Positions 11,040-63,845 of a stretch of 64,000 nucleotides of DNA are shown here, in pieces (positions within the stretch are counted from its first letter, which is position 1; the number at the start of each line of letters is the position of its first letter). The position numbers were made by a program, and so were the translations under genes. The notes beneath the pieces are model-generated. The model was not told where the DNA came from, did no database searches, and was given only the letters and a program-made list of their open reading frames with translations. The stretch spans positions 92,415-156,414 of the forward strand of contig JBBIUB010000001.1 of assembly GCA_037440465.1 (NCBI GenBank), given 5' to 3'. The DNA is from Coprothermobacterota bacterium. Lineage in GTDB: Bacteria > Coprothermobacterota > HKB111.

Positions 11040-11528
11040 CTAACCTTCCTTCTGTATAAGAGAAATATATTTCAACATCTTTTCTGCTCCCAGCCTCTTT
11101 TTTCTTAAGCCAACTTTATCTGCTGCGGCATATTCAATAGCCTCAACAGGACAAAACTCTACACATTTAGGGGTTCCACCACATAAATCACATTTCATGG
11201 CAACTTTCTTTAAAGAATGAACCGAAGCACCCCCAAAAGGGCAAACCATAATACAGGTATAACATCCAATACACTTCTTTTCATTTAAAAGTACAACTCT
11301 CAACTGACTATCCCTATAAAGAGCCCGAGAGGGGCAAGACTCCAGGCACAAAGCAGTTTCACATTGCTGGCAAGTTATAGGTATGTCTATACCATCTCTC
11401 TTAAAACTGACCACCGAAATCCGGGAAAGCCTTGGATTAAAGACACCTTCGTGCTCAAAAGAGCATGCCAGTTCACAGATACGACAACCGGTACATTTAT
11501 CAAGATCTACTATAAGTAATTTATCCAT
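11040..11528 (-). CDS. Four-cluster 4Fe-4S ferredoxin-like electron-transfer subunit (AorA/DmsB-like)
   Basis: 162 aa with CTGCRICELAC, CQQCETALCLESCP, CIGCYTCIMVCP and CDLCGGTPKCVEFCP motifs. Abuts the AOR gene. Confidence 0.85.
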   Translation of the reverse strand: MDKLLIVDLDKCTGCRICELACSFEHEGVFNPRLSRISVVSFKRDGIDIPITCQQCETALCLESCPSRALYRDSQLRVVLLNEKKCIGCYTCIMVCPFGGASVHSLKKVAMKCDLCGGTPKCVEFCPVEAIEYAAADKVGLRKKRLGAEKMLKYISLIQKEG

Positions 11529-11756
11529 TTAACCTCCACCTATAGACCAGAGAATTTTAACCTGGTCTCCGTTCTTTAATGGTGTTTCCATGCTCTTGAA
11601 ACTTTCATTTACCAGGATTAGGAAAGGGGCAAAAGAAGGAAGTTCTAAATGAGTTATTAGATCTGAAACAGTTGAGTCTTCTAACAACCCTATTACTTCT
11701 TCCCTACCCTGGTAAAATTCCCGTAATGGTCCAAAAACGCTTACTTTAATCTTCAT
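11529..11756 (-). CDS. MoaD/ThiS-family ubiquitin-like sulfur-carrier protein
   Basis: 75 aa, beta-grasp size, ending ...GDQVKILWSIGGG with the C-terminal Gly-Gly typical of MoaD/ThiS. Directly abuts the ferredoxin gene. Confidence 0.65.
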   Translation of the reverse strand: MKIKVSVFGPLREFYQGREEVIGLLEDSTVSDLITHLELPSFAPFLILVNESFKSMETPLKNGDQVKILWSIGGG

Positions 11757-11805
11757 AATAATTGTTTTTCTCCCACTTTGCTGCTAATTAAGGTTGGAAG
11801 ATTCC

Positions 11806-11831
11806 GTGACATGTAATGTGTGACATGTAAT
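11806..11831. repeat. Direct repeat, 2 x 12 nt (gtgacatgtaat) separated by 2 nt
   Basis: Read directly at 11806-11817 and 11820-11831, in the 176-nt spacer between the two AOR operons. Confidence 0.8.
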
Positions 11832-11932
11832 AAGTAATATGAAATCTGTGAAATGTAAATTATAATTATCTCTCATCGCTTGTCTCCTTTAATCTATAAT
11901 CTGTTAATTATTACTCGTTACTCATCACCCAC

Positions 11933-13828: not shown

Positions 13829-14222
13829 GGAAATCCTCCTTTAGCTCTATGACTCCAGAGGGACAAATTGTGACACATTTCTCACAGACCTCGCAGATGA
13901 GGGGTGTTTTTTTCTCAGGATGAAGACTCACAGCTTCATAAGGACAGATTTCTTCACAGATTCCACATAAGATGCATAGTTCCTCATCAATAGATACCAC
14001 TCCCTCTTTTTTTCTCAAAGCCAGAGTCGAGCAATTATCAATACAAGGTGCGGGTTCACAATTTTGACAGAACTTCACTTCGTCCCTGCTATCATCAAAA
14101 CGTTTGGTTTTAGCCCGAGATACAGCAGGATTTATCACTCCATAATGAACGAAAGAACAAACAGATTCATGTATCCTGCACCCCGTACAAACAAGAGGGT
14201 TAACCTTCAAATGGCGACCCAT
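13821..14222 (-). CDS. 4Fe-4S ferredoxin-like subunit partnered with AOR paralog 2
   Basis: 133 aa. CQNCEPAPCIDNC, CILCGICEEICP and CEVCEKCVTICP motifs. The first motif is CTGCRIHESVC, with His where the third Cys is expected. 8-nt overlap with AOR2. Confidence 0.8.
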   Translation of the reverse strand: MGRHLKVNPLVCTGCRIHESVCSFVHYGVINPAVSRAKTKRFDDSRDEVKFCQNCEPAPCIDNCSTLALRKKEGVVSIDEELCILCGICEEICPYEAVSLHPEKKTPLICEVCEKCVTICPSGVIELKEDFRE

Positions 14223-14404
14223 TCCTTTTTCTCCTTTTTACATTCCATACTTGACTCCGTGAAACCTTTTTTCTATTTAACTAAATGATTGTTTAAACAA
14301 AGATTTATATTTACTATTAAAACACATAAAGAGAATAAATTGTTACAAATAGTACAAGTATTTATCATCTATGTTGTGCTATAATTCAAAATAGGAACTC
14401 ATAA

Positions 14405-15205
14405 ATGGAAAGGTATAAAGTACAAACAAGATTCAAGGAAATAGGAGAAGGTGGTCAGGCTAAATTAGCTGAAGGAAGAGTTTGTATTATTGGCCTGGGG
14501 GGTCTTGGGGGGTTTTTAAGCGAACTTCTTACCAGGGCGGGTGTTGGTCGAATAACCCTTATAGATTTTGATTCAGTTGAAATATCCAACCTACAAAGAC
14601 AGATTCTTTACAACGAAGATGATGCAAATGAAGGAAAGTTAAAAGTAGAAACCGCATTAGAGAAACTTAGTAAAATAAACAGTGAAATAGACTTAGTTGG
14701 TTATTCTCTGTACCTTTCTCCGCAGAATGCTGAAAAATTCTTACTTGGTCATGACTTGATCCTTGATGGAACTGACAACTATGGAACCCGTTATTTATTA
14801 AATGACATTGCTGTTAAACATTCAATCCCCTGGATATTCCAGGCAGTTGCTGGAGCTTATGGTATGGCATCAATGATAATTCCTGGGGAAACACCTTGTC
14901 TGAAAGAAATATTACCTGAAGATATTAGCTCTCAGGCTCTACATTGTTCCACTGTAGGTGTAATCTCACCTATCATAGCATCAACAACTGCTTTTACTAT
15001 TACTCAAACATTAAAGTTTTTAACCCAAGGCAAAGAAAACATCGATAGAGGTCTGGCTTTGATAGACCTTTGGCATCCATCTTTTGAATTAATAGAATTG
15101 AATAAAAACCTTCAAGATCCTTGTCCTGTATGCGAATTGAGAAAATTTGAATACCTGGAAGGTGATAAATTTCCCAAACCAAGTGTTAAAGGATCTGCTT
15201 GTTAA
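14405..15205 (+). CDS. ThiF/MoeB/HesA-family E1-like adenylyltransferase
   Basis: 266 aa. Nucleotide loop IIGLGGLGG, DFDSVEISNLQRQ, a conserved Cys region HCSTVGVISP, and a C-terminal CPVC zinc motif. Confidence 0.8.
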   Translation: MERYKVQTRFKEIGEGGQAKLAEGRVCIIGLGGLGGFLSELLTRAGVGRITLIDFDSVEISNLQRQILYNEDDANEGKLKVETALEKLSKINSEIDLVGYSLYLSPQNAEKFLLGHDLILDGTDNYGTRYLLNDIAVKHSIPWIFQAVAGAYGMASMIIPGETPCLKEILPEDISSQALHCSTVGVISPIIASTTAFTITQTLKFLTQGKENIDRGLALIDLWHPSFELIELNKNLQDPCPVCELRKFEYLEGDKFPKPSVKGSAC

Positions 15206-15220
15206 TATAAAGGAGGAAGA

Positions 15221-15559
15221 ATGTATAAGGTTTATGAAAAAGAAGTTAAACCCGAAATAGTTGAAGAGGGTAAAGCTGCTACTATCAAATGGATATTACA
15301 TAAAGGTATTGGGGTACCAAACTTTGAGTTGCGTATTTTTGAGATTCAACCAGGCGGGCGTACACCTGAACATGTGCATCATTGGGAACATGAAGTGTAT
15401 GTATTATCTGGTAATGGGAAGGTTAAAAGTGAAAGGGGGGATGCAGAGTTAAAACCTGGAGTGGCAGTATTTGTTCCTCCTCAGGAAAAACATGTTTTTG
15501 TAAATGATGGGGAGGAAGAATTAAAGTTTATCTGTGTTATACCTCGTAGAGAGGGATAA
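15221..15559 (+). CDS. Small cupin-domain protein (metal-binding)
   Basis: 112 aa. Cupin motif 1 GGRTPEHVHHWEHEVYVLSGNG and motif 2 PPQEKHVFVND. Confidence 0.7.
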   Translation: MYKVYEKEVKPEIVEEGKAATIKWILHKGIGVPNFELRIFEIQPGGRTPEHVHHWEHEVYVLSGNGKVKSERGDAELKPGVAVFVPPQEKHVFVNDGEEELKFICVIPRREG

Positions 15560-51637: not shown

Positions 51638-52594
51638 TTAAGAATCCCTGACAATCCAGGTTCCTGTCTCATTTCTTAAAGCGGATATCAGAGAATCAGG
51701 AGAAGCTATAAGCACCTTTCCATTTATTTTTTCGAGGTACTTTATGGACGCCAAAATTTTAGGGCCCATGCTCCCCGCTGGAAAATGCCCTTCATTATAA
51801 TACCTCTTGGCTTCAAATAGAGTCATTTTACTTATCTTCTTCTCATTATCTTTGCCGAAGTTTAAAGCTACTTGAGAAACGCCTGTTAGAATTATAAACA
51901 AACCAGCTCCGAGTTCTTCAGCTAAAAGAGCAGAGCCTAAATCTTTATCAATAACTGCCTCCACACCTATTAATTTTCCACCATCATTACATACAGGTAT
52001 TCCCCCACCACCAACAGCAACAACAAGGTGACCTCTTTCAGTTAGATCCTCGATGGCTCTGTATTCTATTATCTCACGGGGTATTGGTGAAGGTACAATC
52101 CTTCTCCATCCACGTCCTGAATCTTCCTTAACAACCCAACCTTTTTCTTTACTCAACTTGCAGGCTTCCTCTTCAGAATAGAAAAGACCAACATATTTTG
52201 TAGGATTTTTAAAGGCTGGATCTTCCTTATCTACTAAGGTTCGTGTTACAACAGAAACAACAGATCGATTAACTCCAGCTTGATTCAAGGCTTCCTGAAG
52301 TGGTTGGATCATCATATATCCTATACTTCCCTGAGTTTCTGCACCACACACATCCAATGTATGGGGAGGGACTGCATGTTGACTAAGCTCCGAACGCAAA
52401 AGGGTATTTCCAACCTGGGGACCGTTGCCATGGGTTATTACGATATTCAGATCCTCTCTCATCAGAAATGGGAGAAGATGCTTTACTGTCTCTTTTATGT
52501 TTTTGTATTGTTCTTCAACAGTACCTTTTTCGCCAGTTCGCAAAATAGCATTTCCACCGAGTGCTATCACTATGAACTCTTTACCGTTTCTCAA
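51638..52594 (-). CDS. arcC: Carbamate kinase
   Basis: 318 aa. IALGGNAIL, THGNGPQVG and VAVGGGGIPV blocks. Confidence 0.9.
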   Translation of the reverse strand: MRNGKEFIVIALGGNAILRTGEKGTVEEQYKNIKETVKHLLPFLMREDLNIVITHGNGPQVGNTLLRSELSQHAVPPHTLDVCGAETQGSIGYMMIQPLQEALNQAGVNRSVVSVVTRTLVDKEDPAFKNPTKYVGLFYSEEEACKLSKEKGWVVKEDSGRGWRRIVPSPIPREIIEYRAIEDLTERGHLVVAVGGGGIPVCNDGGKLIGVEAVIDKDLGSALLAEELGAGLFIILTGVSQVALNFGKDNEKKISKMTLFEAKRYYNEGHFPAGSMGPKILASIKYLEKINGKVLIASPDSLISALRNETGTWIVRDS

Positions 52595-52603
52595 TTTAGA
52601 CTC

Positions 52604-53530
52604 CTAAAGTAAAAGAGCCAGGATGGCTTTCTGAGCGTGCAGCCTATTTTCAGCTTGGTCAAAAACCACTGATTGAGGTCCATCCATTACCTCGTTGGTT
52701 ATCTCTTCTCCTCTGTGTGCGGGTAGGCAGTGTAACACAACAGCTTCAGGAGAAGCAAAGTTTAGAAGTGAAGAATTAACTTGATAAGGTATAAAGACCT
52801 TCTTCCTCTCTATAGCCTCCTCTTCTTGCCCCATACTGGCCCAAACATCTGAATATACTACATCTGCTTTCTCTATAGCTTCTTCAGGATTGGAAACTAC
52901 CTTGATGGTGCCACCACTCTTCAAAGCTTCCGCCTGAGCCATTTCTACGACAAAAGCTGATGGTTCATAGTAAGGAGGCGAAGCTACTCTTATATGCATT
53001 CCCACCTTGGCTCCACCAAGAAGAAGGGCGTTACACACATTGTTTCCATCACCTATATAAGCCATGGTCACCCCCTTAAGACTTCCCTTCTTCTCCTTGA
53101 CAGTCATAAGATCTCCAAGAACCTGGCAGGGGTGATATAGGTCAGATAAACCATTTATCACTGGTATAGAAGCATATTCAGCTAACTCCTCAAGAGTCTT
53201 ATGAGAATAGACTCTTGCCATTATACCGTTTAAATAACGAGAAAGTGTGCGAGCTGTGTCTGCAATGGTTTCTCCTCTTTTAAGCTGAAGATCTTGAGCT
53301 CCGAGATAAAGGGCATGGCCTCCAAGCTCATACATAGCAACTTCAAAAGAGACCCTGGTGCGAGTTGAGGGTTTCTCAAAAATCATACCGAGAGTCTTAC
53401 CCTGCAAAGAATTATGAATTATATTGCTTCTCTTCATCCTTTTCAACATAAACCCTGTTTCTAAAATTTCTTCTATCTCTTCTAAGGATAAATCTCCCAG
53501 GCTTAATAGGTCTCTTCCCCTAAGATTCAT
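52604..53530 (-). CDS. argF: Ornithine carbamoyltransferase
   Basis: 308 aa. FEKPSTRTRVSFE, HPCQ, DGNNV and HCLPAHRGEE motifs. The anabolic versus catabolic role cannot be decided from sequence. Confidence 0.9.
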   Translation of the reverse strand: MNLRGRDLLSLGDLSLEEIEEILETGFMLKRMKRSNIIHNSLQGKTLGMIFEKPSTRTRVSFEVAMYELGGHALYLGAQDLQLKRGETIADTARTLSRYLNGIMARVYSHKTLEELAEYASIPVINGLSDLYHPCQVLGDLMTVKEKKGSLKGVTMAYIGDGNNVCNALLLGGAKVGMHIRVASPPYYEPSAFVVEMAQAEALKSGGTIKVVSNPEEAIEKADVVYSDVWASMGQEEEAIERKKVFIPYQVNSSLLNFASPEAVVLHCLPAHRGEEITNEVMDGPQSVVFDQAENRLHAQKAILALLL

Positions 53531-54873
53531 GCTTCCACCTCCTTTTCCTTGATTATATGAGGAATTCTCTCTTTAAGAATGGAGCTCAGGGTAGGCTCCC
53601 CAATCTCTTGAAGCTCGTAAGTCACACGGACCGCTGGCTTATTTAGTTTTACTAGCCTTCGTAAATCTATGGGTGTAGCTACAATTACCAAATCAGCTGG
53701 AATTTGATTAAGGGTCTCTTCCATCTCCTTTATCTGGTTCTCGCTATAACCCATAGCTGGTAGAACATCTTCAGTTTGAGTATAGCGGGTAAAGGTACCT
53801 TTAATGGTTCCTACTGCATAAGGTTTTGGGCTAATAATTTCAGATGCCCCATATTTCAGAGCTGCAACATAGCCAGCGCCATACGCCATCTCTCCATGAG
53901 TTAAAGTAGGACCATCTTCAACTATCACTACTTTCTTTCCTCTTATCTTCCCCCCTTCCTCTACATATATAGGAGAAGCAGCTTCAACTATAATTGCCCG
54001 GGGATTAAACTTACGGGCACTAACCCTTACCTTATTCACATTATCAAGAGAAGCTGTATCAAGCTTATTTATAACTAAAACATCGGCTGATCTCAGATTG
54101 GTCTCACCTGGGTGATAACCAATCTCATGACTGGCCCTCAGCGGATCAAGAACCACTATACTTAAATCACTCTTATAGAATGAAAAGTCATTATTTCCAC
54201 CATCCCACACAACCACATCTGCTTCTCGCTGAGCAGATTCCAGAATATCGCCGTAGTCAACACCAGCATATACAATCATTCCCTTAATAATATGAGGTTC
54301 ATACTCTTCCATCTCTTCTATGGTGCATTTGTGCTTTTCAAGGTCAGCAATGGTCTCAAATCTCTGTACTCTCTGGATGGCAAGGTCACCATAGGGCATG
54401 GGGTGCCTGACAACAACCACTTTGAGTCCCATCTCCTTTAAAATGCCGGCAACCCTTCTGGTAGTCTGACTCTTACCTGCCCCAGTTCTAATAGCCCCTA
54501 CAGAAACTACCGGTTTTCTTGCTGCGATCTGGGTGCTACCTGGCCCTAAAAGCCAGAAATCTGCTCCTGAAGCAAGAGTAAGAGATGCCTTGTGCATAAC
54601 ATATTCGTGAGAAACATCGCTATAAGAAAAAACTATTACTTTTACACCCAGTTCTTTAATTAAACGGGTAAGCTCTTCTTCAGCATATATAGGAATACCC
54701 ATTGGATATAATTTACCAGACAGAGATGAAGGATACTTCCTGCCCTCTATATCGGGAATCTGAGTGGCTGTAAAAGCAATAACTTCATACTTCTCATTAT
54801 CTCTGAAAAAAACATTGAAATTATGAAAATCACGTCCAGCTGCTCCCATAATGAGCACTTTGATTCTTCCCAT
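53527..54873 (-). CDS. Uncharacterised P-loop GTPase-like protein (COG2403 / cyclic-2,3-diphosphoglycerate-synthetase-like family)
   Basis: 448 aa. P-loop IRTGAGKSQTT and an NKLD (NKxD) guanine-specificity motif. The family assignment is from memory of the MGAAGRDFHNFN N-terminus. 4-nt overlap with the OTC gene. Confidence 0.55.
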   Translation of the reverse strand: MGRIKVLIMGAAGRDFHNFNVFFRDNEKYEVIAFTATQIPDIEGRKYPSSLSGKLYPMGIPIYAEEELTRLIKELGVKVIVFSYSDVSHEYVMHKASLTLASGADFWLLGPGSTQIAARKPVVSVGAIRTGAGKSQTTRRVAGILKEMGLKVVVVRHPMPYGDLAIQRVQRFETIADLEKHKCTIEEMEEYEPHIIKGMIVYAGVDYGDILESAQREADVVVWDGGNNDFSFYKSDLSIVVLDPLRASHEIGYHPGETNLRSADVLVINKLDTASLDNVNKVRVSARKFNPRAIIVEAASPIYVEEGGKIRGKKVVIVEDGPTLTHGEMAYGAGYVAALKYGASEIISPKPYAVGTIKGTFTRYTQTEDVLPAMGYSENQIKEMEETLNQIPADLVIVATPIDLRRLVKLNKPAVRVTYELQEIGEPTLSSILKERIPHIIKEKEVEA

Positions 54874-55295: not shown

Positions 55296-55750
55296 GCCTC
55301 TTCCCTCTCTTTTACAATATCAATTAACTTCGGTTCCTGTGCAGAATGAGGATGCAAAGGACCCGAATAAACTTTAAGCCTTTTATACATCTTCCTACCA
55401 AGTGTTGTTTTTGGAAGCATAAGGCGCACTGCTTTTTCTAAAACCCTCTCAGGGAAATTTTCTAATACCTTGGAAAGAGGGGTCGCTTTTAAACCCCCCT
55501 GGTAACCAGAATAGTGGTAGTATTTCTTTTGAGCCAACTTCTTTCCGGTTATTTTTATATCTTTAGCATTGATAACTATAACAAAACTACCCATATCAAC
55601 ATGCGGTGTAAACTCTACTTTATTCTTTCCCTGAAGATAGCGACTAATTTGAGATGCCAGCCTTCCAAGAATCTTACCCTTAGCATCAACAAGATGCCAG
55701 TCTCTTTTTACCTCTTTAATATTTATAAACCTTGTTTTAGTAGTTTCCAT
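55292..55750 (-). CDS. rplM: 50S ribosomal protein L13
   Basis: 152 aa. WHLVDAKGKILGRLAS...NAKDIKITGKK...YYHYSGYQGG. Confidence 0.95.
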   Translation of the reverse strand: METTKTRFINIKEVKRDWHLVDAKGKILGRLASQISRYLQGKNKVEFTPHVDMGSFVIVINAKDIKITGKKLAQKKYYHYSGYQGGLKATPLSKVLENFPERVLEKAVRLMLPKTTLGRKMYKRLKVYSGPLHPHSAQEPKLIDIVKEREEA

Positions 55751-55792
55751 TTCTTAAATGGTCTTATGCCTCCTTAAAAATAACTAAAAAAC

Positions 55793-55821
55793 ATTCTAAA
55801 ACAAACCCCTCTCTTTGTCAA
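55793..55821 (-). promoter_or_regulatory. Sigma-70-type promoter candidate for rplM-rpsI
   Basis: Minus strand: TTGACA (55816-55821), 17-nt spacer, TAGAAT (55793-55798). AAGGAGG lies between it and the ATG at 55750. Confidence 0.55.
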
Positions 55822-56137
55822 GCACGGTGTTTGTTCTCAAATAATTATTAAATATAATATTTATCATAATAATTATACACTATCTTCTCATTAAGGGTAC
55901 ATATTTTACTTACCTATATCGGATAGGATATCTATTCCCGTCAAACTGAATTTATTTTATGAGACCCTGAAACAATCCTGAATAGATTTTAGGACAGGGC
56001 CCAAGGTGACCCCCCACCCCACTCTCCCTCTACGAAGGGGAGGATTAAGGAGGGGGTGACAAAACTGAAATGCTTTTCAGCTTTTTCAAATAAAAACTCC
56101 TCTTTTGAATTTTACTTAATATGGATTATAAAAAGTC

Positions 56138-56166
56138 TTGACATTTATAAATATTATTATTATAAT
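56138..56166 (+). promoter_or_regulatory. Consensus sigma-70 promoter of the KAS III-like operon
   Basis: Perfect TTGACA (56138-56143), 17-nt spacer, perfect TATAAT (56161-56166). AGGAG at 56191-56195, ATG at 56201. Confidence 0.65.
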
Positions 56167-56200
56167 GTGAAAGGTGAATCAGGTATAAAAAGGAGTGCTT

Positions 56201-57199
56201 ATGGAAAACAAAAGGACGTCGAGAATTATAGGAACAGGTCTACATGTACCAGAAAAGGTTTTAACAAACCAATATTTTAATGATTTCTTTAAGGAAGATG
56301 TTGGTTCATGGCTTGAAGGTGTTGTAGGTCAAAAGGAAAGGCATGTCCTTGGAGATAATGAATCGGTGGTAGATATTGCTGTTCCTGCAGCTATTATGGC
56401 TATTGAAGAAGGTAAAATCAAGCCCGAAGACATAGACATTATCATTGTTTCTTCTGATACTCATGAATACATTTCACCACCAACATCCTTTGTTGTACAA
56501 AATAAATTGGGTGCTAAAAATGCAGCAGTATTTGATTTAAACGCCTCATGCGCCTCATTTGTAACAGCTCTTGTAACAGCAGATAAATGGCTTAAAGATG
56601 AGGAAAGTTTTAAATATGTATTAGTTATTGGTGAATATGGAATGACAAAATATCTAAACTGGAATGATAAATACACTGCTACCCTCTTTGCTGATGGTGC
56701 AGGAGCTTTTCTTCTTAAAGCAGAAAATGATGAAGAAGAAGGAGTAATAGACTCCGTATTTATAGCTGATGGAAGTTATTATGATTATATTGGGGTCTTC
56801 GGTGGAGGAACAAGGTTCCCCTTAAGAGAAGAAACTATTCAACAGGGTTTACATCAATTGAGAATAATGAAAAGGTATCCACCCGACATTAACTCCAGGA
56901 ACTGGCCAATTCTTATAGAAAATCTCCTCCAAAAAGTTGGAAAAGAAGTTACAGACATAGACATGATTTTCTTTACTCAAATTAATCTTGGTACAATTAA
57001 AGAGGTAATGACTAATCTAAATATTCCAATAGAGAAAACCCACTGGATAATGGATAAATACGGCTACACCGGTTCTGCTTGTATACCTATGGCTGTTCAT
57101 GATGCCCGATTAAATAATAAATTAAAAAAAGGAGATTTCGTGGTAATGATAGCCTCTGGAGCAGGCTTTGCTATGGGAGCTATAGCACTAAAATGGTAA
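56201..57199 (+). CDS. KAS III (FabH)-like thiolase-superfamily protein, paralog 1, non-canonical active site
   Basis: Aligns by eye along E. coli FabH: IIGTG start, FDLNASCASF (Cys112 equivalent kept), FADGAGA, but FFTQINLG (His244 to Thr) and GYTGSACIP (Asn274 to Tyr). ATG at 56201 preferred over GTG at 56195. Confidence 0.8.
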   Translation: MENKRTSRIIGTGLHVPEKVLTNQYFNDFFKEDVGSWLEGVVGQKERHVLGDNESVVDIAVPAAIMAIEEGKIKPEDIDIIIVSSDTHEYISPPTSFVVQNKLGAKNAAVFDLNASCASFVTALVTADKWLKDEESFKYVLVIGEYGMTKYLNWNDKYTATLFADGAGAFLLKAENDEEEGVIDSVFIADGSYYDYIGVFGGGTRFPLREETIQQGLHQLRIMKRYPPDINSRNWPILIENLLQKVGKEVTDIDMIFFTQINLGTIKEVMTNLNIPIEKTHWIMDKYGYTGSACIPMAVHDARLNNKLKKGDFVVMIASGAGFAMGAIALKW

Positions 57200-57244
57200 T
57201 TTATATTAATCAAAACCAGTTTAGTAGAGGAGATTTTAAATAAT

Positions 57245-58228
57245 ATGCGGTCGGTAAAAATAAGTTCTACTGGAATATATTCACCTTCCAGAACTATGTT
57301 CACTGAAGAAATAAATGAATTAGTTGGTGAGGATATAACTTACTGGGCGGTAGAGAAGATGGGCTTAAAAGTAAAAAAAATCTCAGAACCCGATGAAGCA
57401 GCCTCAGATTTAGCAGTAAAAGCAAGTATTGAAGCTATTAATAAAGCAGGAATAAAACCAGAAGACCTTGATCTTCTGATAGTAGCAACAGATACCCCTG
57501 ACTATTTTTCCCCTGCTACATCTTCAATTGTTCAATGTAAATTAGGTGCTAAAAATGCAGGTACTTTTGATGTCAATTGTGCTTGCGCTGGCTTGGTTAC
57601 GGCATTGGATATAGCTACTAAATATATCCTTACGGATAGTTCTTTTAAAAAGGTTCTTATAGTTGGTACTTACGCTATGACTAAGTTTCTCAATTGGAAA
57701 GATAAAGTAACAGCTCCTATTTTTTCAGACGGCGCAGGAGCAATTATACTGGAAGAAACAGATAATGGTCCTGGATTCCTGACCTCTAAACTAATTGCAG
57801 ATGGTTGTTTCTATGACTATTTAGGTGTTTACCTCGGCTCAGGAGCAGTACCCACACCTGAATACATAGAAAAAGGGTTACATTTCGTCAGATATAACAA
57901 AAGATATCCTGATGTAAATTCAGAAAATTGGCCAAGCTTGGTGCGAGATACGCTCAAAAAGGTAAATCTTACTTCTCAAGATATTGACATGATAATCTTC
58001 ACTCAAGTCCGTAAATTTACCATAGAAGAAGTAATGGAAAAACTCAATCTCCCTCTTTCTAAAACATACATGGTTATGCACAAATATGGGTACACAGGCT
58101 CCGCCTGTATCCCTATGGCTTTGAATGATGCCCTTGAAGAAAGGAAAATAAAAAAGGGAGACCTTGTAGTTTTTTGCTCATCAGGAGGTGGGTATGCGAT
58201 GGCAGCATACGCCATGAGATGGGTTTAA
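57245..58228 (+). CDS. KAS III (FabH)-like thiolase-superfamily protein, paralog 2, non-canonical active site
   Basis: 327 aa, clearly paralogous to the preceding gene. FDVNCACAGL (Cys kept), IFTQVRKF (His to Thr, QAN Asn to Arg) and GYTGSACIP (Asn to Tyr). Confidence 0.8.
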   Translation: MRSVKISSTGIYSPSRTMFTEEINELVGEDITYWAVEKMGLKVKKISEPDEAASDLAVKASIEAINKAGIKPEDLDLLIVATDTPDYFSPATSSIVQCKLGAKNAGTFDVNCACAGLVTALDIATKYILTDSSFKKVLIVGTYAMTKFLNWKDKVTAPIFSDGAGAIILEETDNGPGFLTSKLIADGCFYDYLGVYLGSGAVPTPEYIEKGLHFVRYNKRYPDVNSENWPSLVRDTLKKVNLTSQDIDMIIFTQVRKFTIEEVMEKLNLPLSKTYMVMHKYGYTGSACIPMALNDALEERKIKKGDLVVFCSSGGGYAMAAYAMRWV

Positions 58229-58248: not shown

Positions 58249-59016
58249 ATGCCATATTTACCATTTAAGAACGGAAATTTATACTATGAAGAATCAGGAG
58301 AAGGCGATAGGAAACTCCTCTTTGTGCATGGAAACATCGCTTCTCTTAATTACTGGAGAAAATTAAGACCTTATTTACCAACTAAGATAAAGTGTTTTTT
58401 CCTCGACCTTCCCGGATATGGTAAATCTGATAATATTTCGCCATATAACCTTGAATCCTTTGCTGATTCAATTATCTATTTTGCTGAAAAATTAGAGCTC
58501 AAAACCTTTACCTATGTTGGACATTCCACCGGGGGGCTTATAGGTATAATATCTACCTTAAAAGGTGCTCCAATAGCAAAACTTATCCTTATATCTACCG
58601 TTCCTGCAAGTGGATATCCTCTTACAGAAGATTCCAGAGCTGCTTTTACCTTTCTTATGACTAATAGGGACTTCCTCGAGCAGACCTTAAGGAACCATGT
58701 ATTTCCTAGCATCTCAGATGAAAACTTAGCACTTGAACTTATTCAAGATGCAGTAAGAGCCATTCCCCAGGGTTACACCGATGTTCCAGAAAGCCTGGGT
58801 GAAACAAATGTCCTTAAGGAGGCTAAAGAACTAAAGATTCCCATCCTTTTTATCCATGGGACAGAAGATAAAGTCATTCCACTTGATTGGGCAAGAGAAA
58901 CTTTTGACACAATAAATGGGAAGGTAATTATTCTGAAAGGTGCCGGTCACACACCTCAGATTTCTTTCCCACAGGAAGTAGCAACACATATAGTGAACTT
59001 TGTAAAGGAGAATTAA
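58249..59016 (+). CDS. Alpha/beta-fold hydrolase
   Basis: LLFVHG oxyanion region, nucleophile elbow GHSTGG, and C-terminal GAGHTPQ (catalytic His). ATG at 58249 lies 8 nt after AAGGAGG; the ORF-track start at 58174 overlaps the previous gene. Confidence 0.8.
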   Translation: MPYLPFKNGNLYYEESGEGDRKLLFVHGNIASLNYWRKLRPYLPTKIKCFFLDLPGYGKSDNISPYNLESFADSIIYFAEKLELKTFTYVGHSTGGLIGIISTLKGAPIAKLILISTVPASGYPLTEDSRAAFTFLMTNRDFLEQTLRNHVFPSISDENLALELIQDAVRAIPQGYTDVPESLGETNVLKEAKELKIPILFIHGTEDKVIPLDWARETFDTINGKVIILKGAGHTPQISFPQEVATHIVNFVKEN

Positions 59017-59018
59017 AT

Positions 59019-59762
59019 ATGGGAAAGTTTGAAAACAAAATAAGTATTGTTACAGGTGGTGGAAGAGGAATTGGTAAAGAGATATGCCTATCTTTTGCTA
59101 CAGAAGGAGCTAAGATAGTCATCTGGGATATAGACCAAGAAAGAGCACAGGAGGTTAAAGGTCGGTGTGAAGCACTGGGCATAGAAGTCCTGGTTCAACG
59201 GGTTGATGTAACCAATAGAAACCAGATTAAAAATGCAGTTGATGAAGTTATTGGCAAGTGGGGTAGAATAGATATTCTTGTTAATAATGCAGGCATAACC
59301 CGAGATGCTTATCTTTCAAAAATGTCAGAAGAAGATTTCGATATGGTTATAAACATTAATCTTAAGGGCGTATTTAACTGTACTCAATTAGTTGTTCCTC
59401 ATATGATGACCCAAAACTACGGAAATATAATATGTATCTCCTCTATAGTAGGTAGAGATGGAAATATCGGGCAAACCAACTATGCTGCTTCCAAAGCTGG
59501 AGTAATAGGTATGGTCAAGACCTGGGGTAAAGAACTCGCCAGGTTTAACATTAGAGCCAATGCTATTGCTCCTGGCTTTATCGCTACAGAAATGACCCAA
59601 AAAGTTCCAGAGAAGGTCATTGAGATGGTAAAGGAAAAAACACCCTTGAAACGCCTGGGAACACCGCAAGAAATAGGAAGACTGGCTGTTTTCCTCGCCT
59701 CTGAAGAATCCTCCTTCATCACCGGCCAGGTCATAAGTGTTGATGGAGGTCTTGTCCTCTAA
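59019..59762 (+). CDS. Short-chain dehydrogenase/reductase, FabG (3-oxoacyl reductase)-like
   Basis: 247 aa. TGGGRGIG, NNAG and S...YAASKAG catalytic set, with PGFIATEM. Confidence 0.85.
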   Translation: MGKFENKISIVTGGGRGIGKEICLSFATEGAKIVIWDIDQERAQEVKGRCEALGIEVLVQRVDVTNRNQIKNAVDEVIGKWGRIDILVNNAGITRDAYLSKMSEEDFDMVININLKGVFNCTQLVVPHMMTQNYGNIICISSIVGRDGNIGQTNYAASKAGVIGMVKTWGKELARFNIRANAIAPGFIATEMTQKVPEKVIEMVKEKTPLKRLGTPQEIGRLAVFLASEESSFITGQVISVDGGLVL

Positions 59763-59776
59763 TTAAGGGTGATGAG

Positions 59777-61000
59777 TTGAGTAAAAGAGAACCAAGAACT
59801 TCCAAGGGAATTAGAGCAAAAGATCTGCTCATTGAAAAAGCTGAAGAATTATTTTACCAGAAAGGCTATTTTCAGACTTCTATCCCAGCCATAGTTAAAG
59901 AAGCTCGTCTAAGTGTACCTTCTTTTTATCAATATTTTAAAAATAAGGAAGATGTTCTACTGGAGATTGTCTCAGTCCTATCTAAAGAGTTCCTGGGTGA
60001 ATTACGGAAATCCCTGGAAAATACTGATAATACAGAAATTGCCATTCATAATTTCTATAAAACATTTCTTACCTTCCTTTATAACAACAAGAAGAAGTAT
60101 AAAATCTTCAGAGAAACAGAGTTTGCAGGCTACTCTTTCGTGAAGGATTTCTATATCCACCTAACAGACTTAGTAAAGGAATTTCTTTATAAAGATATTC
60201 CTTCAGACAAATTAAAAGATGACTTATCATATACCCTGATTGGTTCTGCATATTTCGTTGCTTTAAAAAAGATTGACTGGGAGAGCTCCTCAAACATAGA
60301 TTTTCTTGCTGATAATCTTATTCAATTCTTTCTAAAAGGCATTGATAAAAAAAGAAACTATGTTTTTTCACCTGCCTGGAAGGAAAGAATAGAAATAACC
60401 TCTCAAGAACAAGTACTAACAAGGGGAGAGCGTACTCAGAAAGATATCCTAAAAGCTGCAGAAAAGCTTTTTGGAAATAAAGGTTTCTGGGAAACTCATA
60501 TCTCTGATATAACTAACGATATTGATATTGGTCAAGGTACTTTCTACCTATATTTTGACTCTAAGATTGAACTCTTGAGCAAATTAGTAAAAGAAATTAA
60601 TAGAGGGTTAAGATATACGGTTTACCAGTATATAAAAGAAGCCAGTGATAGGCGAGAGATAGAAGTTAAAGGTTTAGTAGCTTTCTCAGATTACATAATA
60701 GAACACAAAAACGCTTACCGTGTGGTACGAGAAGCTGAATTCGTTGATAGGGAAATAGGTAAATGGTATTACAACCGGGTTGTAGAGCCTTACGCTATCA
60801 AACTTAAAGAAGCCATTGAAAAAGGAGAAGTTTCCAGTATTGACCCTGAGATATTAGCACTGGCTATTATAGGAGTTGGTCATTTTCTGGGATTACGTTG
60901 GGTAGTCTGGAACAACGATAATAATAAAGGAATACCCTCTGAATCTCTTTACAATACTCTAAAGATTATTTTATGGGGAGCAAAAAATGAAAAGAATTGA
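59777..61000 (+). CDS. Tandem-duplicated (single-chain double) TetR-family regulator
   Basis: 407 aa with two TetR_N HTH units: res ~14-60 (RAKDLLIEKAEELFYQKGYFQTSIPAIVKEARLSVPSFYQYFKNKEDVL) and ~218-265 (TQKDILKAAEKLFGNKGFWETHISDITNDIDIGQGTFYLYFDSKIELL). FRETEF / VREAEF repeat in each half. TTG start. Confidence 0.8.
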   Translation: MSKREPRTSKGIRAKDLLIEKAEELFYQKGYFQTSIPAIVKEARLSVPSFYQYFKNKEDVLLEIVSVLSKEFLGELRKSLENTDNTEIAIHNFYKTFLTFLYNNKKKYKIFRETEFAGYSFVKDFYIHLTDLVKEFLYKDIPSDKLKDDLSYTLIGSAYFVALKKIDWESSSNIDFLADNLIQFFLKGIDKKRNYVFSPAWKERIEITSQEQVLTRGERTQKDILKAAEKLFGNKGFWETHISDITNDIDIGQGTFYLYFDSKIELLSKLVKEINRGLRYTVYQYIKEASDRREIEVKGLVAFSDYIIEHKNAYRVVREAEFVDREIGKWYYNRVVEPYAIKLKEAIEKGEVSSIDPEILALAIIGVGHFLGLRWVVWNNDNNKGIPSESLYNTLKIILWGAKNEKN

Positions 61001-62270
61001 TATAGATGATCTTTTGAGGATTATCCCACCTAAAGCAAGTATCGTTGTAGGAATGGTTGCTGCTCAACCAAAAGAATTTCTTTTTAACCTTCACAGGAAA
61101 CAAGATGTAGAACTTATTACAGTGACTTTAGCTCTACCACTTGAGGCATATGAATTTTTTTCAAATCCTCTATATAAGGACAAATTTCTACTGGAAGCCT
61201 GGTATCATGGTCCTTTTGCCAGGAAGGCGTATGAGTTAGGAACTGTCACTTTTGTCCCCAATCAACTTAACAAAGCAGGTATTGATAGACAAGAAGTAAA
61301 TCCGCCAGATGTTATAGTTCTTACTTCGCCACCCATTGATCAATATGGATACTTTAACCTTTCTCTCTCTGTAACTTATGAAAAATACCTGGCTCTTCAA
61401 AAGAAAAAAGGAGCCATGGTTGTCATTGAAATCAATAAAAATCTTCCAAGAGTACTGGGAGATACATTTCTTCCCCATAGTTATGTTGATTACTATTATG
61501 AGACGGACATGCCCTTATTTTCACTTGAAGAACAGAAAACCCAGAGAGAGGAAGAAAAAATTGGCCATTTAATTTCAGAGTTAGTTGAAGATGGCTCAAC
61601 TATTCAATTGGGAATAGGAGGCATTCCAAATACAGTTGCCTATCTTTTAGAAAAAAAAGAAGACCTCGGTGTTCATACCGAGATGATAACAGAAAGTATG
61701 GCTTATCTTTACAGAAAGGGGGTGATTAACGGAAGAAAGAAGAGTTTTTATCCTGCTACTATGGTAGGAACTTTTATTTATGGTTCAGCAAAGCTCTACG
61801 AATTTGCTCATGAAAACCCTGCTGTCACACTTTTACCCGGACATATAACCAATGATCCATACGTTATAGGGCAACAACACAAGATGGTTTCAATAAATAC
61901 AGCTCTTATGATAGATTTAAATGGTCAGGTATGCTCAGAAAGTATTGGTCTTGAGCAGATAACAGGTACAGGTGGTCAGGTAAATTTCCACACAGGTGCT
62001 CAGTTCTCTCGTGGAGGAAAAGGGATTTTAGCCATAAAATCAACAGCTCGAAATGGTGAATTGTCCTCTATAGTACCTGTACTACCTCTCGGTTCAACAG
62101 TGACCCTATCTCGTAACGATGTAGATTACATAGTAACTGAATATGGTGTTGGAAGGTTAAAAGGTAGAAGTGTAAAGGAAAGAGTAGAAATATTAATTTC
62201 TATCGCTCACCCGAAGTTCAAAGATTACCTTCGGGAAGAAGCAAAAAGACTAAAAATCTATAATTGGTAG
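60987..62270 (+). CDS. Acetyl-CoA hydrolase/transferase-family CoA-transferase (4-hydroxybutyrate CoA-transferase-like)
   Basis: 427 aa. LGIGGIPN, HTEMITE, INTALMIDLNGQVCSE and ITGTGGQVNF blocks. 14-nt overlap with the TetR gene. Confidence 0.75.
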   Translation: MKRIDIDDLLRIIPPKASIVVGMVAAQPKEFLFNLHRKQDVELITVTLALPLEAYEFFSNPLYKDKFLLEAWYHGPFARKAYELGTVTFVPNQLNKAGIDRQEVNPPDVIVLTSPPIDQYGYFNLSLSVTYEKYLALQKKKGAMVVIEINKNLPRVLGDTFLPHSYVDYYYETDMPLFSLEEQKTQREEEKIGHLISELVEDGSTIQLGIGGIPNTVAYLLEKKEDLGVHTEMITESMAYLYRKGVINGRKKSFYPATMVGTFIYGSAKLYEFAHENPAVTLLPGHITNDPYVIGQQHKMVSINTALMIDLNGQVCSESIGLEQITGTGGQVNFHTGAQFSRGGKGILAIKSTARNGELSSIVPVLPLGSTVTLSRNDVDYIVTEYGVGRLKGRSVKERVEILISIAHPKFKDYLREEAKRLKIYNW

Positions 62271-62279
62271 GAGGAGAAT

Positions 62280-63845
62280 GTGAAAAAAATTATCAGTATG
62301 TTATTAGTGTTAAGTATTTTTGCATGGGGCGCTCCTCAATCGATCGCTCAAACTGAAGGAGATGGTTTGCTTTTGGTTTTGCAGGTAGGATCAACATCTT
62401 ACTTTAAAAACGGAACTAAACTTGAAATTGATGTAAAACCAGAAATTCTTAAAGGAAGAACCTTCGTACCTATTAGATTTGTGAGTGAAGCCATGGGAGC
62501 TAAGGTTACATGGGTTGAAGCTACTAAAACTGTTATAGTATCCACTGATAAAACCACTATTACCTTAAAAGTGGGCAGCATAGAAGCTCTAATAGATGGC
62601 AAGAAACATACTTTAGAAGCCGCTCCTTACATTAAAACCGGCAGAACTATGGCACCAGTAAGGTTAGTTAGCGAAGGATTAGGTCTTAATGTTTACTGGG
62701 AAGGTAAAGCCAAGCAGATTTTCCTTAGAGGAAAACCAATGGTAACAGTTCCTGGAATTTCTGACAATGAGATTAAAATTGGTTCATTTATTGCCCTCAC
62801 AGGAGTTCTGGCTTTTATAGGAGTACCTTACTATCAGGGGTTTCAATCATACCTCAATATGGTGAATGACGAGGGCGGAATCAATGGAAGAAAAATTAAT
62901 CTTATTGTGGAAGATGACCGTTTTGACCCTGCAAGAACCGTAATTGGAGTTAGAAAACTTGTTGAAGAAGATAAAGTCTTCGCTATTGTTGGTGGACTTG
63001 GAACTCCAGGTAGCCTTGCAGTTATGGATTATCTGAATAAAGGCAAGGTTCCTTTTGTATATCAAGCATCTGGTGTCTCTGTACTATCTATTCCTGCTAA
63101 GCGTTATATATTCTCTGTTCAGCCAAATTACTATAATGAAGGTCAGATATTCGTAAGATACATTGTAGGAGAATTGAAACAAAAAAAGATTGCTGTACTT
63201 TACCAGAATGATGACGCTGGTAGAGAAGGCTTATTCGGAGTTAATACTGGAATAAGGAGATTTGGAGGAAACCTTGTTGCTGACCTCCCCTTCCCTGGTA
63301 CAGAAACAGACTTTACTCCATATCTTTTAAGAGTTAAAGCCAGCGGCGCAGAATCCCTGATAGTCTATACTCTCAGTGCAGGCATTGGTGGTACGATCGT
63401 TAAAGCGGCAAAGGCTTTGGGGCTTACTCAAAAAATATTCCTGCCATATCCACATGCTGGAATTATCGCTGCGGCTGGTGATGCCTCAGAAGATGTGTAT
63501 GTAACTGGTTGGGTTGATTTTTCAGATGCAAAAGATCCAGGTGTCATTAAATTTTGGGAAACTTGGCTTAAGTACTATCCTAAAGGTGACCCCCTACTTT
63601 TTGCTTATGCAGTAGCTGGTTTTGTTGCTGGTGAAGTATTTGTGGAATCACTAAAAAGACTTGGACCTTATCCAAGCCGTGAAGCACTAATCTGGGCGCT
63701 TGAAGCCTTTAAGGGATGGGATGGTTATCTTGTTAAAGACCTTAGCTACGGACCTAAAGAAAGATCAGGTAAATACTCCATGTTCTTTATGCAGGTTCAG
63801 AAAAAGGAGCTTAAGAAAGTTAGCAGCTGGATTTCTGTTTTCTAA
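62280..63845 (+). CDS. LIV-type ABC substrate-binding protein fused to an N-terminal copper-amine-oxidase-N-like (Cu_amine_oxidN1) domain
   Basis: Signal peptide ...APQSIAQ. Residues ~30-150 show the two-fold LKGRTFVPIRFVSEAMGAKVTW / KTGRTMAPVRLVSEGLGLNVYW pattern. The rest is Peripla_BP_6-like (IKIGSFIALTG...GGINGRKINL...VFAIVGGLG). GTG start after GGAGGAG. Confidence 0.8.
   Translation: MKKIISMLLVLSIFAWGAPQSIAQTEGDGLLLVLQVGSTSYFKNGTKLEIDVKPEILKGRTFVPIRFVSEAMGAKVTWVEATKTVIVSTDKTTITLKVGSIEALIDGKKHTLEAAPYIKTGRTMAPVRLVSEGLGLNVYWEGKAKQIFLRGKPMVTVPGISDNEIKIGSFIALTGVLAFIGVPYYQGFQSYLNMVNDEGGINGRKINLIVEDDRFDPARTVIGVRKLVEEDKVFAIVGGLGTPGSLAVMDYLNKGKVPFVYQASGVSVLSIPAKRYIFSVQPNYYNEGQIFVRYIVGELKQKKIAVLYQNDDAGREGLFGVNTGIRRFGGNLVADLPFPGTETDFTPYLLRVKASGAESLIVYTLSAGIGGTIVKAAKALGLTQKIFLPYPHAGIIAAAGDASEDVYVTGWVDFSDAKDPGVIKFWETWLKYYPKGDPLLFAYAVAGFVAGEVFVESLKRLGPYPSREALIWALEAFKGWDGYLVKDLSYGPKERSGKYSMFFMQVQKKELKKVSSWISVF

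Follow-up and report, generated by a model that had tools for sequence, protein, structure and literature searches.

KAS III-like proteins with a Cys/Thr/Tyr signature and a conserved gene neighbourhood

What reaction does an enzyme catalyze if it has the fold of β-ketoacyl-acyl carrier protein (ACP) synthase III (KAS III, or FabH) and keeps the nucleophilic cysteine, but has threonine and tyrosine in place of the catalytic histidine and asparagine? This question is raised by two genes that lie head to tail, 45 nt apart, in a 64,000-nt stretch of DNA from a Coprothermobacterota bacterium (GenBank assembly GCA_037440465.1, contig JBBIUB010000001.1, positions 92,415 to 156,414 of the forward strand), referred to here as the window. 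Sequence comparison places the two proteins, paralogues A and B, in a discrete and widespread clade with a rebuilt active site, which we name the CTY clade. Our best reading is that CTY proteins would be CoA-dependent, non-decarboxylating acyl-Cys enzymes of hydroxy-acid or ester catabolism. The two genes and their signature residues are:

56201..57199, + strand: KAS III-like paralogue A, 332 amino acids (aa), CTY clade
57245..58228, + strand: KAS III-like paralogue B, 327 aa, CTY clade
Signature residues of A: Asp86, Ser92, Cys117, Thr259, Tyr289, Cys294, Ser319
Signature residues of B: Asp83, Ser89, Cys114, Thr253, Tyr283, Cys288, Ser313
Codons in A, + strand: Cys117 at 56549-51, Thr259 at 56975-77, Tyr289 at 57065-67
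Codons in B, + strand: Cys114 at 57584-86, Thr253 at 58001-03, Tyr283 at 58091-93

Active-site signature of the two paralogues and their clade

The first-pass annotation of this DNA had aligned both proteins to Escherichia coli FabH by eye and proposed that the Cys is kept while Thr and Tyr stand in the places of His244 and Asn274. HMMER and MAFFT alignments agree with that proposal. In HMMER alignments with solved FabH structures, the segments fdlnasCasf and fdvncaCag fall on the Cys motif, ffTqin and ifTqvr on pHqan, and kygYtgsacip on kygNtsaasip, all with top posterior probabilities, and in the MAFFT alignment with E. coli FabH, Cys112 is retained, His244 is replaced by Thr, and Asn274 is replaced by Tyr in both A and B. 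AlphaFold2 (AF2) models built on a 40-sequence alignment have predicted local distance difference test scores (pLDDT) of 96.3 for A and 94.5 for B, and Foldseek superposes model A on FabH crystal structures with template modelling (TM) scores of 0.87-0.95 and a root mean square deviation of about 1.9 Å over about 330 columns. The models have the topology of FabH, with the Cys at the N terminus of a helix, the Thr right after a strand, and the Tyr right before a helix. Because alignments, model topology, and superposition agree, the residue equivalence is sound, and the structure-based comparison that had been proposed as a check bears it out at the level of AF2 models, by superposition score and topology. 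Both open reading frames (ORFs) thus have the FabH fold with the nucleophilic Cys retained.

A start codon at ATG 56201 is preferred over the GTG at 56195, where a mechanical ORF list had begun paralogue A, because GGAG (at 56192) lies six bases 5′ of the ATG, a candidate promoter stands upstream, and gene calls on the source contig also give a 332-aa product. Full-length identity between the two proteins is 49%, and each contains the two FabH Pfam domains, ACP_syn_III and ACP_syn_III_C, above cut-off. The opposite strand beneath A and B has no ORF of 80 aa or more, and no canonical FabH was found within the window. The closest relatives at the protein level bear the labels candidate division WS2 and Cryosericum.

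The first-pass annotation had also considered that a His and an Asn might be supplied from elsewhere in the chain, or that the substituted positions might vary among homologs. Elsewhere in the chain, there is no conserved His or Asn that would be an evident substitute, and the positions are nearly invariant. Residue frequencies among 210 distinct full-length clade members, with positions in E. coli FabH numbering, are:

C112: Cys in 210/210
H244: Thr in 209/210 (the remaining one Ser)
N274: Tyr in 210/210
T81: Asp in 209/210
F87′: Ser in 205/210
S276: Gly in 209/210
S279: Cys in 209/210
F304: Ser in 209/210

The comparison set of the 108 nearest canonical FabH representatives has Cys/His/Asn in 108/108. 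Its common residues at position 81 are V, S, I, T, and A, and do not include Asp. A and B each contain the complete signature of D81, S87′, C112, T244, Q245, Y274, G276, C279, and S304. Because it is near-invariant in 210 relatives, the Cys/Thr/Tyr set is a clade signature rather than a chance occurrence. All of the top 120 homologs, which are 46-75% identical, have Cys/Thr/Tyr save one with Ser for Thr. A profile search that covered 1.84 billion representative proteins is topped by about two dozen 50%-identity clusters with the signature, scoring from 475 to about 300 bits, while canonical Cys/His/Asn FabH starts near 295 bits. Most matches above about 300 bits carry the full signature, the others being one C/N/Y protein and a few fragments. 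The five further clade-specific changes, the conserved operon, and the sister family PRK06840 described below go beyond the first-pass annotation.

A pattern search over genomes, one for each species, turned up at least 600 CTY loci, and the best 80, which were retained, come from at least 12 phyla. The sources are Acidobacteriota (mostly Pyrinomonadaceae and Blastocatellia), Myxococcota, Bdellovibrionota, Anaerolineae, Caldisericota/Cryosericum, Ignavibacteriota, Bacteroidota, Calditrichota, Elusimicrobiota, Bipolaricaulota, Zhuqueibacterota, and Thorarchaeota. Neither Pfam nor NCBIfam has a model specific for the clade, whose members bear generic public names such as 'ketoacyl-ACP synthase III' or '3-oxoacyl-ACP synthase'. 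Full-text literature searches returned nothing on the CTY clade or on PRK06840, and no solved structure is nearer than canonical FabH (best E values 1e-47 to 1e-52, about 30% identity). Longer representatives yield no informative extra domain that would serve as a Rosetta-stone fusion. One metagenomic protein (P0145, 412 aa) combines a partial KAS-like and a partial α/β-hydrolase domain; it looks like a frameshifted gene call across two adjacent genes and was rejected as a true fusion.

The additional signature residues suggest how the pocket may have changed. The Asp lies in an (A/S)-(T/S)-D-T motif, two residues past the strand just before the half of the fold that carries the Cys, and hhalign of the clade profile with Staphylococcus aureus 3-hydroxy-3-methylglutaryl-CoA (HMG-CoA) synthase, with a query sequence checked against PDB 1xpk, places this Asp on Glu79 and the Cys on Cys111. 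Glu79 is the general base of HMG-CoA synthase. In E. coli FabH, Phe87′ caps the acyl pocket from the partner subunit, and its replacement by Ser implies a pocket that would be roomier or more polar. The Tyr and the second Cys may be in mutual contact, as analogy suggests, because the related family PRK06840 has His274 and Asp279 at the corresponding positions. The ACP-docking and CoA-contact residues are known from work on E. coli FabH. At the ACP-docking positions, R36 is V, N, or I in the clade, K214 is E or D, R249 is S, N, or G (Arg in 86/108 canonical representatives), and K256/K257 are variable. The Gly-rich oxyanion loop is retained, the W32 position is still aromatic (F/W), and R151 is Lys in most, though not all, clade members. 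Because the basic ACP-docking residues are lost while the aromatic residue at W32 and mostly Lys at R151 remain, our reading is that the substrates are probably CoA rather than ACP thioesters.

The first-pass annotation had taken the substitutions shared by two adjacent paralogs as a sign of a heterodimer. As a rule for the clade this fails, since the CTY gene is single-copy in most of the 80 loci, and elsewhere the enzyme must act as a homodimer. Among these loci, tandem copies are confined to the window and to three metagenome-assembled genomes (MAGs) of Caldisericota/Cryosericum. A neighbor-joining tree separates A and B into two clades, both of which include orthologues from the three MAGs (A-orthologues are about 60% identical, as are B-orthologues). 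A further Caldisericota MAG (L071) has a single-copy gene, which falls with B in the tree and is 70% identical to it. Because the A and B clades are separate and each has orthologues in the three relatives, the tandem pair is an old duplication specific to a Caldisericota-related lineage. That A and B form an obligate heterodimer within this lineage, an arrangement compatible with any chemistry, is possible but somewhat doubtful. The pair has been retained in all four genomes since the old duplication, some Bacteroidota and Ignavibacteria operons combine a CTY gene with a PRK06840 gene, and enzymes with the FabH fold form dimers whose subunits each extend into the pocket of the other. However, most loci are single-copy, including that of L071, which argues that the homodimer is ancestral, and both copies carry every signature residue, so that neither resembles a non-catalytic partner. 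A PqsBC-type pair with a degenerate subunit was rejected, as A and B both retain the Asp, Cys, Thr, Tyr, Cys, and Ser.

Operon organization and conserved neighborhood

The genes 3′ of B are spaced by -14 to +20 nt. The further features of the operon are:

56117..56166, + strand: candidate operon promoter, TTGACA-17-TATAAT at 56138-56166, based on sigma-70 consensus matches only
58249..59016, + strand: serine α/β-hydrolase (Pfam Abhydrolase_1; GHSTGG nucleophile elbow)
59019..59762, + strand: FabG-type short-chain dehydrogenase/reductase (SDR) for 3-oxoacyl/3-hydroxyacyl thioesters (TIGR01830, 310 bits against a cut-off of 298)
59777..61000, + strand: double TetR-family regulator, two TetR_N domains in one 407-aa chain
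60987..62270, + strand: Family I CoA-transferase of the 4-hydroxybutyrate CoA-transferase type (PDB 3eh7, E 4e-89)
62280..63845, + strand: solute-binding protein of an ABC importer (Peripla_BP_6)

Just past the end of the window, two ABC ATPases and two permeases follow before the strand changes. The best NCBIfam match of the hydrolase is an intracellular short-chain-length polyhydroxyalkanoate (PHA) depolymerase, at 115 bits against a cut-off of 300. Its best PDB match, over the N-terminal half only, is 8ynv (E 7e-17), which a literature search identified as a Bacillus thuringiensis polyhydroxybutyrate depolymerase; lactonases and esterases come next. The nucleophilic Ser is present in 93/93 members of the hydrolase cluster. 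On the acetoacetyl-CoA reductase model, the SDR scores 262 bits against a cut-off of 302. The best matches of the double TetR regulator are the acyl-CoA-sensing FasR and FadR, all below cut-off, and its architecture (cluster c10) recurs beside CTY genes at Caldisericota and Bipolaricaulota loci. The ABC binding protein has an N-terminal Cu_amine_oxidN1 ('copper amine oxidase N-terminal') domain before its Peripla_BP_6 domain.

To describe the neighborhood across the clade, ORFs from the 80 loci were clustered, the clusters were named with Pfam and NCBIfam, and neighbors were counted within four genes of the CTY gene at the 70 scorable loci. The simple ORF caller mis-calls high-GC Myxococcota loci, one of which (L070) was checked by hand and has the same components. 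The α/β-hydrolase is the most constant CTY neighbor (52/70 loci, often as two genes and often with a 4-nt overlap with the CTY gene), and an AMP-dependent acyl-CoA ligase is present at 55/70. Other recurrent neighbors are a TonB-type outer-membrane receptor (27/70), a TetR regulator (25/70), MaoC (21/70), a major facilitator superfamily (MFS) transporter (19/70), and a FabG-type SDR (16/70). The constant core across phyla consists of the hydrolase, the CTY enzyme, and a CoA-activating enzyme, which in anaerobic lineages is a CoA-transferase instead of the ligase; the CoA-transferase of the window occupies the slot that the ligase has in most other loci. The importer varies by phylum (TonB receptor plus MFS transporter, sodium:solute symporter, ABC system, or an unnamed outer-membrane protein), as does the regulator (TetR, double TetR, MarR, or AtoS/AtoC-like). 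Because the core is constant while the types of importer and regulator vary, the gene content indicates that the operon probably serves to take up and break down a carboxylic acid or its esters. The gene clusters that recur in the window operon and the 80 loci do not include acpP, fabD, fabF, or plsX, and the FabG-type SDR is the only component of this kind. A role for the operon in fatty-acid synthesis or secondary-metabolite synthesis was considered and rejected, as the neighborhood pattern does not fit it.

Several neighbors offer hints about the substrate. The SDR and MaoC are alternative accessories in CTY loci, and both enzymes act on (R)-3-hydroxyacyl thioesters. The CoA-transferase of the window is of a C4 hydroxy-acid type, and AtoS/AtoC-like regulators occur at 4 loci. 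Lipase_2 proteins whose sole NCBIfam match is the extracellular PHA depolymerase PhaZ7 are found at 8 loci in Acidobacteriota and Myxococcota. In three Blastocatellia loci, the CTY gene adjoins a class III PhaC-like gene that scores 355 bits (cut-off 365), and two of the three add PhaR, above cut-off, and small phasin-like ORFs. These hints, each of which is below a curated cut-off or phylogenetically patchy, are leads only; they suggest as candidate substrates short 3-hydroxy- or 3-oxo-acids and the corresponding oligo-esters, such as products of PHA breakdown.

Two further observations concern these neighborhoods. At the Blastocatellia loci (L029:10983-17317, L040, and L075), the neighbors of the CTY gene are PhaR, small phasin-like ORFs, two class III PhaC-like genes on either side of an acyl-CoA ligase, and an unnamed 403-aa α/β-hydrolase-like protein. 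CTY operons of Ignavibacteriota, Myxococcota, and Zhuqueibacterota repeatedly contain a probable outer-membrane barrel of about 525-555 aa (L037:11225-12802, L070:13374-15038), which has a signal peptide, a C-terminal Phe, and no Pfam or NCBIfam match.

The candidate promoter matches the sigma-70 consensus at 12/12 positions and lies 35 nt 5′ of paralogue A. A 16-nt inverted repeat, 56117-56132 / 56144-56159 (TAATATGGATTATAAA / TTTATAAATATTATTA), flanks the -35 box and could be a candidate operator for the operon's TetR-type regulator. Farther upstream, at 55980-56090, the otherwise A+T-rich divergent intergenic region contains a G+C-rich stretch (ggcccaaggtgaccccccaccccactctccc...ggagggggtga), after which a 14-nt hairpin (56057-56070 / 56075-56088) occurs with no terminator call. 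Rfam gave zero matches across 55600-56300. The sequencing runs that contain the sequence are DNA only, from a subsurface metagenome. The genes upstream, on the other strand, are rplM, rpsI, argF, and arcC. Between argF and rpsI, a 448-aa ORF (53527-54873, - strand) has a P-loop-like motif and no Pfam or NCBIfam match, its sole PDB match being a weak one to cyclic 2,3-diphosphoglycerate synthetase (9sxb, E 2e-4). At 51638-53530 (- strand), a carbamate kinase-like gene (AA_kinase) adjoins one for ornithine carbamoyltransferase, giving two genes of arginine deiminase pathway type.

Possible chemistry of the CTY enzymes

Canonical decarboxylative condensation with malonyl-ACP, which the first-pass annotation had judged unlikely, remains so because the His and Asn are invariantly substituted, the cut-offs of the FabH models are missed, and the ACP-docking residues are lost. 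In FabH, acylation of the Cys depends on the helix dipole and a backbone oxyanion hole and requires neither the His nor the Asn. In a CTY enzyme, an acyl-CoA would thus still acylate the Cys, and malonyl-ACP decarboxylation would be lost. The conserved Asp could act as a general base on the acyl-Cys intermediate, as Glu79 does in HMG-CoA synthase, with the hydroxyls of the Tyr, Thr, and Ser replacing the His and Asn and polarizing the carbonyl of the second substrate. The reaction would then break or form a C-C bond next to the thioester without decarboxylation, as a thiolase-like Claisen or retro-Claisen reaction or as one of aldol type. The substrate would be a short 3-oxo- or 3-hydroxyacyl-CoA obtained from an imported hydroxy-acid or oligo-ester, plausibly a PHA-derived 3-hydroxyalkanoate. 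We propose this non-decarboxylative C-C chemistry on short 3-oxo-/3-hydroxyacyl-CoA tentatively, as a leading candidate that stops somewhat short of being probable.

A number of points weigh against this proposal. The type of reaction is inferred from residues and gene context, the placement of the Asp, Tyr, Thr, and Ser around the Cys is presumed, and stabilization of a malonyl-derived enolate by the hydroxyls of the Tyr and Thr is conceivable in principle. A canonical thiolase shares the gene cluster at four loci (L037, L071, L078, and L083), so the CTY enzyme is not simply the missing thiolase of the pathway. Many Pyrinomonadaceae operons have MaoC and no dehydrogenase, so a 3-oxoacyl-CoA substrate is not guaranteed, and the SDR scores as FabG. 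As for PHA, every PHA-related match of the hydrolases falls short of its curated cut-off, and unambiguous PHA genes (PhaR, PhaC-like) are confined to a few loci that cluster phylogenetically.

The same residues and neighbors can be explained by acyl transfer, in which the acyl group on the Cys moves between an oxygen ester and CoA and the Asp would serve as base for the hydroxyl or thiol. An example would be CoA-dependent thiolysis or transesterification of 3-hydroxyalkanoate oligomers, yielding 3-hydroxyacyl-CoA with no ATP spent per monomer. The loss of the carbanion-stabilizing His and Asn with retention of the Cys is in keeping with this, because known Cys-retaining KAS III-like enzymes with a partly lost triad, of the CerJ and DpsC type, are acyltransferases. 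So are the steady association with ester hydrolases and CoA-activating enzymes, the PHA-related neighbors, the separate thiolase in some operons, and the alternation of SDR and MaoC, which fits a CTY enzyme upstream of (R)-3-hydroxyacyl-CoA. However, we found no precedent for such a reaction in the FabH fold, the hydrolases of the operon would render the step dispensable, and the carboxylate that CTY and the His-containing PRK06840 both have where HMG-CoA synthase has its base fits enolate chemistry equally well or better. Taken by itself acyl transfer is rather unlikely, and yet we consider it nearly as likely as the C-C reaction. A decarboxylating condensation of acyl-CoA with malonyl-CoA, as in NphT7, with Tyr and Thr forming the oxyanion hole and the 3-oxoacyl-CoA product passing to the FabG-like reductase, would suit PHA synthesis, for example. 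It would account for the FabH fold, the Cys, the aromatic residue at the W32 CoA-contact position, the adjacent SDR above the FabG model cut-off, and the PhaC-like, PhaR, and phasin-like genes that adjoin the CTY gene in Blastocatellia. We consider it improbable: H244 and N274 are present in 108/108 of the nearest canonical relatives and never in the clade, E. coli FabH requires both for decarboxylation, and the operons lack malonyl-CoA, ACP, or carboxylase genes. In addition, the importers, CoA-transferase or ligase, and hydrolases indicate catabolism, and the clade occurs in Thorarchaeota.

Gene content alone would also recall the Ole and Lst systems, where a KAS III-like homo- or heterodimer performs a head-to-head condensation and a reductase, an AMP-ligase-type β-lactone synthetase, and an α/β-hydrolase then lead to an olefin or β-lactone. 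The same four superfamilies (KAS III-like, α/β-hydrolase, AMP-binding enzyme, and SDR) occur together in CTY loci, and the tandem KAS III-like genes resemble LstA/LstB. Nevertheless, OleA structures match weakly and in the N-terminal part (E 1e-10 to 1e-15), the His and Asn are missing, and Ser stands at the position taken as that of the partner-subunit Glu base of OleA. The ligase is nearest to acyl-CoA synthetases and is replaced in the window by a CoA-transferase, the SDR is of the classical FabG type rather than the 3β-HSD type of OleD, the hydrolase fits haloalkane dehalogenase models worse than esterase/lactonase models, and importers and regulators lie inside the operon. We therefore regard such a pathway as very improbable, and olefin or β-lactone biosynthesis of this type was rejected on the basis of residues, ligase type, SDR type, and importer context. 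Least credible of all is that the proteins are catalytically dead relics of FabH with a structural or regulatory role. Two of the three canonical catalytic residues are indeed gone, but across at least 12 phyla there is almost no variation in the Cys, in the Gly-rich oxyanion loop, or at eight further positions of the active site, and both AF2 models are very confident.

CTY and PRK06840 might together represent an unrecognized catalytic class of the thiolase superfamily, with a carboxylate base and a Tyr/Thr/Ser pocket acting on acyl-Cys, a reaction new for the fold, and a role in widespread, unannotated scavenging of PHA-type or hydroxy-acid esters in bacteria and Asgard archaea. We consider this broader proposal doubtful at present. 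Candidate reactions for such a class are a CoA-dependent, energy-conserving cleavage of hydroxyalkanoate oligo-esters and a retro-aldol or retro-Claisen step. The strictly conserved Asp/Cys/Thr/Tyr/Ser/Cys site would add a new active-site solution to the thiolase superfamily. There are also consequences for annotation. Hundreds of genomes from at least 12 phyla, including Thorarchaeota, annotate CTY genes as FabH-type, and if these genes do not start fatty-acid synthesis, any reconstruction of metabolism that treats them as FabH is in error, as are arguments on bacterial-type lipid synthesis in archaea that do so. The conserved operon provides a concrete hypothesis of hydroxy-acid or ester uptake followed by CoA-dependent processing, possibly of PHA breakdown products, and cultured carriers are available for genetics, which include Pyrinomonas methylaliphatogenes, Archangium gephyra, and Chondromyces apiculatus.

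Comparison with known families

CTY proteins resemble FabH (E. coli, PDB 1hnj and 1ebl; Aquifex aeolicus, 2ebd; Bacillus subtilis FabHA, 8vd9) in fold, with 27-30% identity, in Pfam domains, in the Cys at a helix N terminus, in the Gly-rich oxyanion loop, and in the aromatic residue at W32. They differ in the replacement of His244 by Thr, Asn274 by Tyr, T81 by Asp, F87′ by Ser, S276 by Gly, S279 by Cys, and F304 by Ser. Neither A nor B reaches the cut-off of a curated FabH model: on TIGR00747 they score 205.5 and 220.6 bits, respectively, against a cut-off of 292.1, and on NF006829 they score 227.1 and 238 bits against 249. The genes near CTY also differ, with no fab genes except the FabG-type SDR and an operon of catabolic or import type. 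A role in initiation of fatty-acid synthesis was rejected because of the altered triad, the loss of the ACP patch, the scores below the model cut-offs, and the gene context.

The closest distinct family is NF005308 (PRK06840, '3-oxoacyl-ACP synthase'), which aligns with CTY over the full length (hhalign E 1.7e-47) and appears uncharacterized. The two share an acidic residue at position 81, Lys209, Trp220, and Gly276, and differ in that PRK06840 has Glu81, which is invariant, with Cys, His245, His274, Asp279, and Ala304, whereas CTY has Asp, Cys, Thr244, Tyr274, Cys279, and Ser304. On the NF005308 model, the window proteins score 171 and 190 bits against a cut-off of 315, and true members score 417-459. 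Two loci have a second, divergent KAS-like gene of this family, and NF005308 genes were located at L048:4286-5293, L078:5420-6445, L082:8001-9032, and L083:8001-9035. PRK06840 proteins are more than 70% identical from Bacteroidota to Clostridia, and their operons are like those of CTY, with an ABC importer, a CoA-transferase or ligase, an α/β-hydrolase, and MaoC or an SDR. The operon of Proteiniborus ethanoligenes (L082) mirrors that of the window, with a sigma-54 activator, MaoC, a binding protein and ABC importer, the KAS-like gene, a CoA-transferase, an α/β-hydrolase, and chemoreceptors. In a Bacteroidota MAG, both types occur in one operon, which contains an SDR, the CTY gene, a symporter, a ligase, the PRK06840 gene, an outer-membrane protein, a hydrolase, and a thiolase. 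CTY and PRK06840 thus have in common both an acidic residue at the position of the HMG-CoA synthase base and their pathway context. As a separate observation, three methyl-accepting chemotaxis protein genes (L082:7159-7983 and 11431-15360) flank the KAS-like, CoA-transferase, and hydrolase genes of P. ethanoligenes, which hints that the pathway substrate may also be a chemoattractant.

HMG-CoA synthase (S. aureus MvaS, 1xpk; Glu79-Cys111-His233) likewise forms acetyl-Cys and has a carboxylate base after the same β-strand. The CTY Asp aligns on its Glu79, and the YTGS motif is common to both. Nonetheless, the relationship is distant (hhalign probability 96%, 21% identity), CTY is without the catalytic His and without mevalonate-pathway context, and A and B score 67-76 bits on NF003274 against a cut-off of 244. 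With thiolases (Cys-Asn-His-Cys), the proposed likeness is one of chemistry, a non-decarboxylative Claisen or retro-Claisen reaction of CoA thioesters by way of an acyl-Cys, and by our reading the CTY Ser at the FabH F304 position would fall in the catalytic loop of the thiolase second Cys. Thiolases belong to another branch of the superfamily, CTY has neither the His nor a second Cys at the thiolase position, and matches to thiolase models are marginal (19-29 bits), reaching no cut-off. Ltp2, the steroid side-chain retro-aldolase of the thiolase superfamily, offers a precedent for a thiolase-fold enzyme in which Tyr residues serve in acid/base catalysis and which acts on 3-hydroxyacyl-CoA together with a MaoC-type hydratase; it is not known to have a nucleophilic Cys, lies in the SCP-x/thiolase branch, and requires a DUF35 partner.

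Reuse of the FabH fold for acyl transfer or non-decarboxylative condensation is known from CerJ/ChlB6, DpsC, PqsBC, OleA, and LstA/LstB. CerJ/ChlB6 are Cys-His-Asp acyltransferases, DpsC has Ser-His-Asp, and PqsBC is a heterodimer with a degenerate PqsB; some altered-triad KAS III-like enzymes are heterodimers of paralogues. To our knowledge, all of them keep the His in at least one subunit. The first-pass annotation knew of no Cys/Thr/Tyr set, and none with Thr/Tyr and Asp81 was found in the PDB or the literature. The CTY clade lacks the defining features of FabH (except the fold), HMG-CoA synthase, OleA, PqsBC, and thiolase, and it is best described as a new variant in the KAS III-like branch of the thiolase superfamily.

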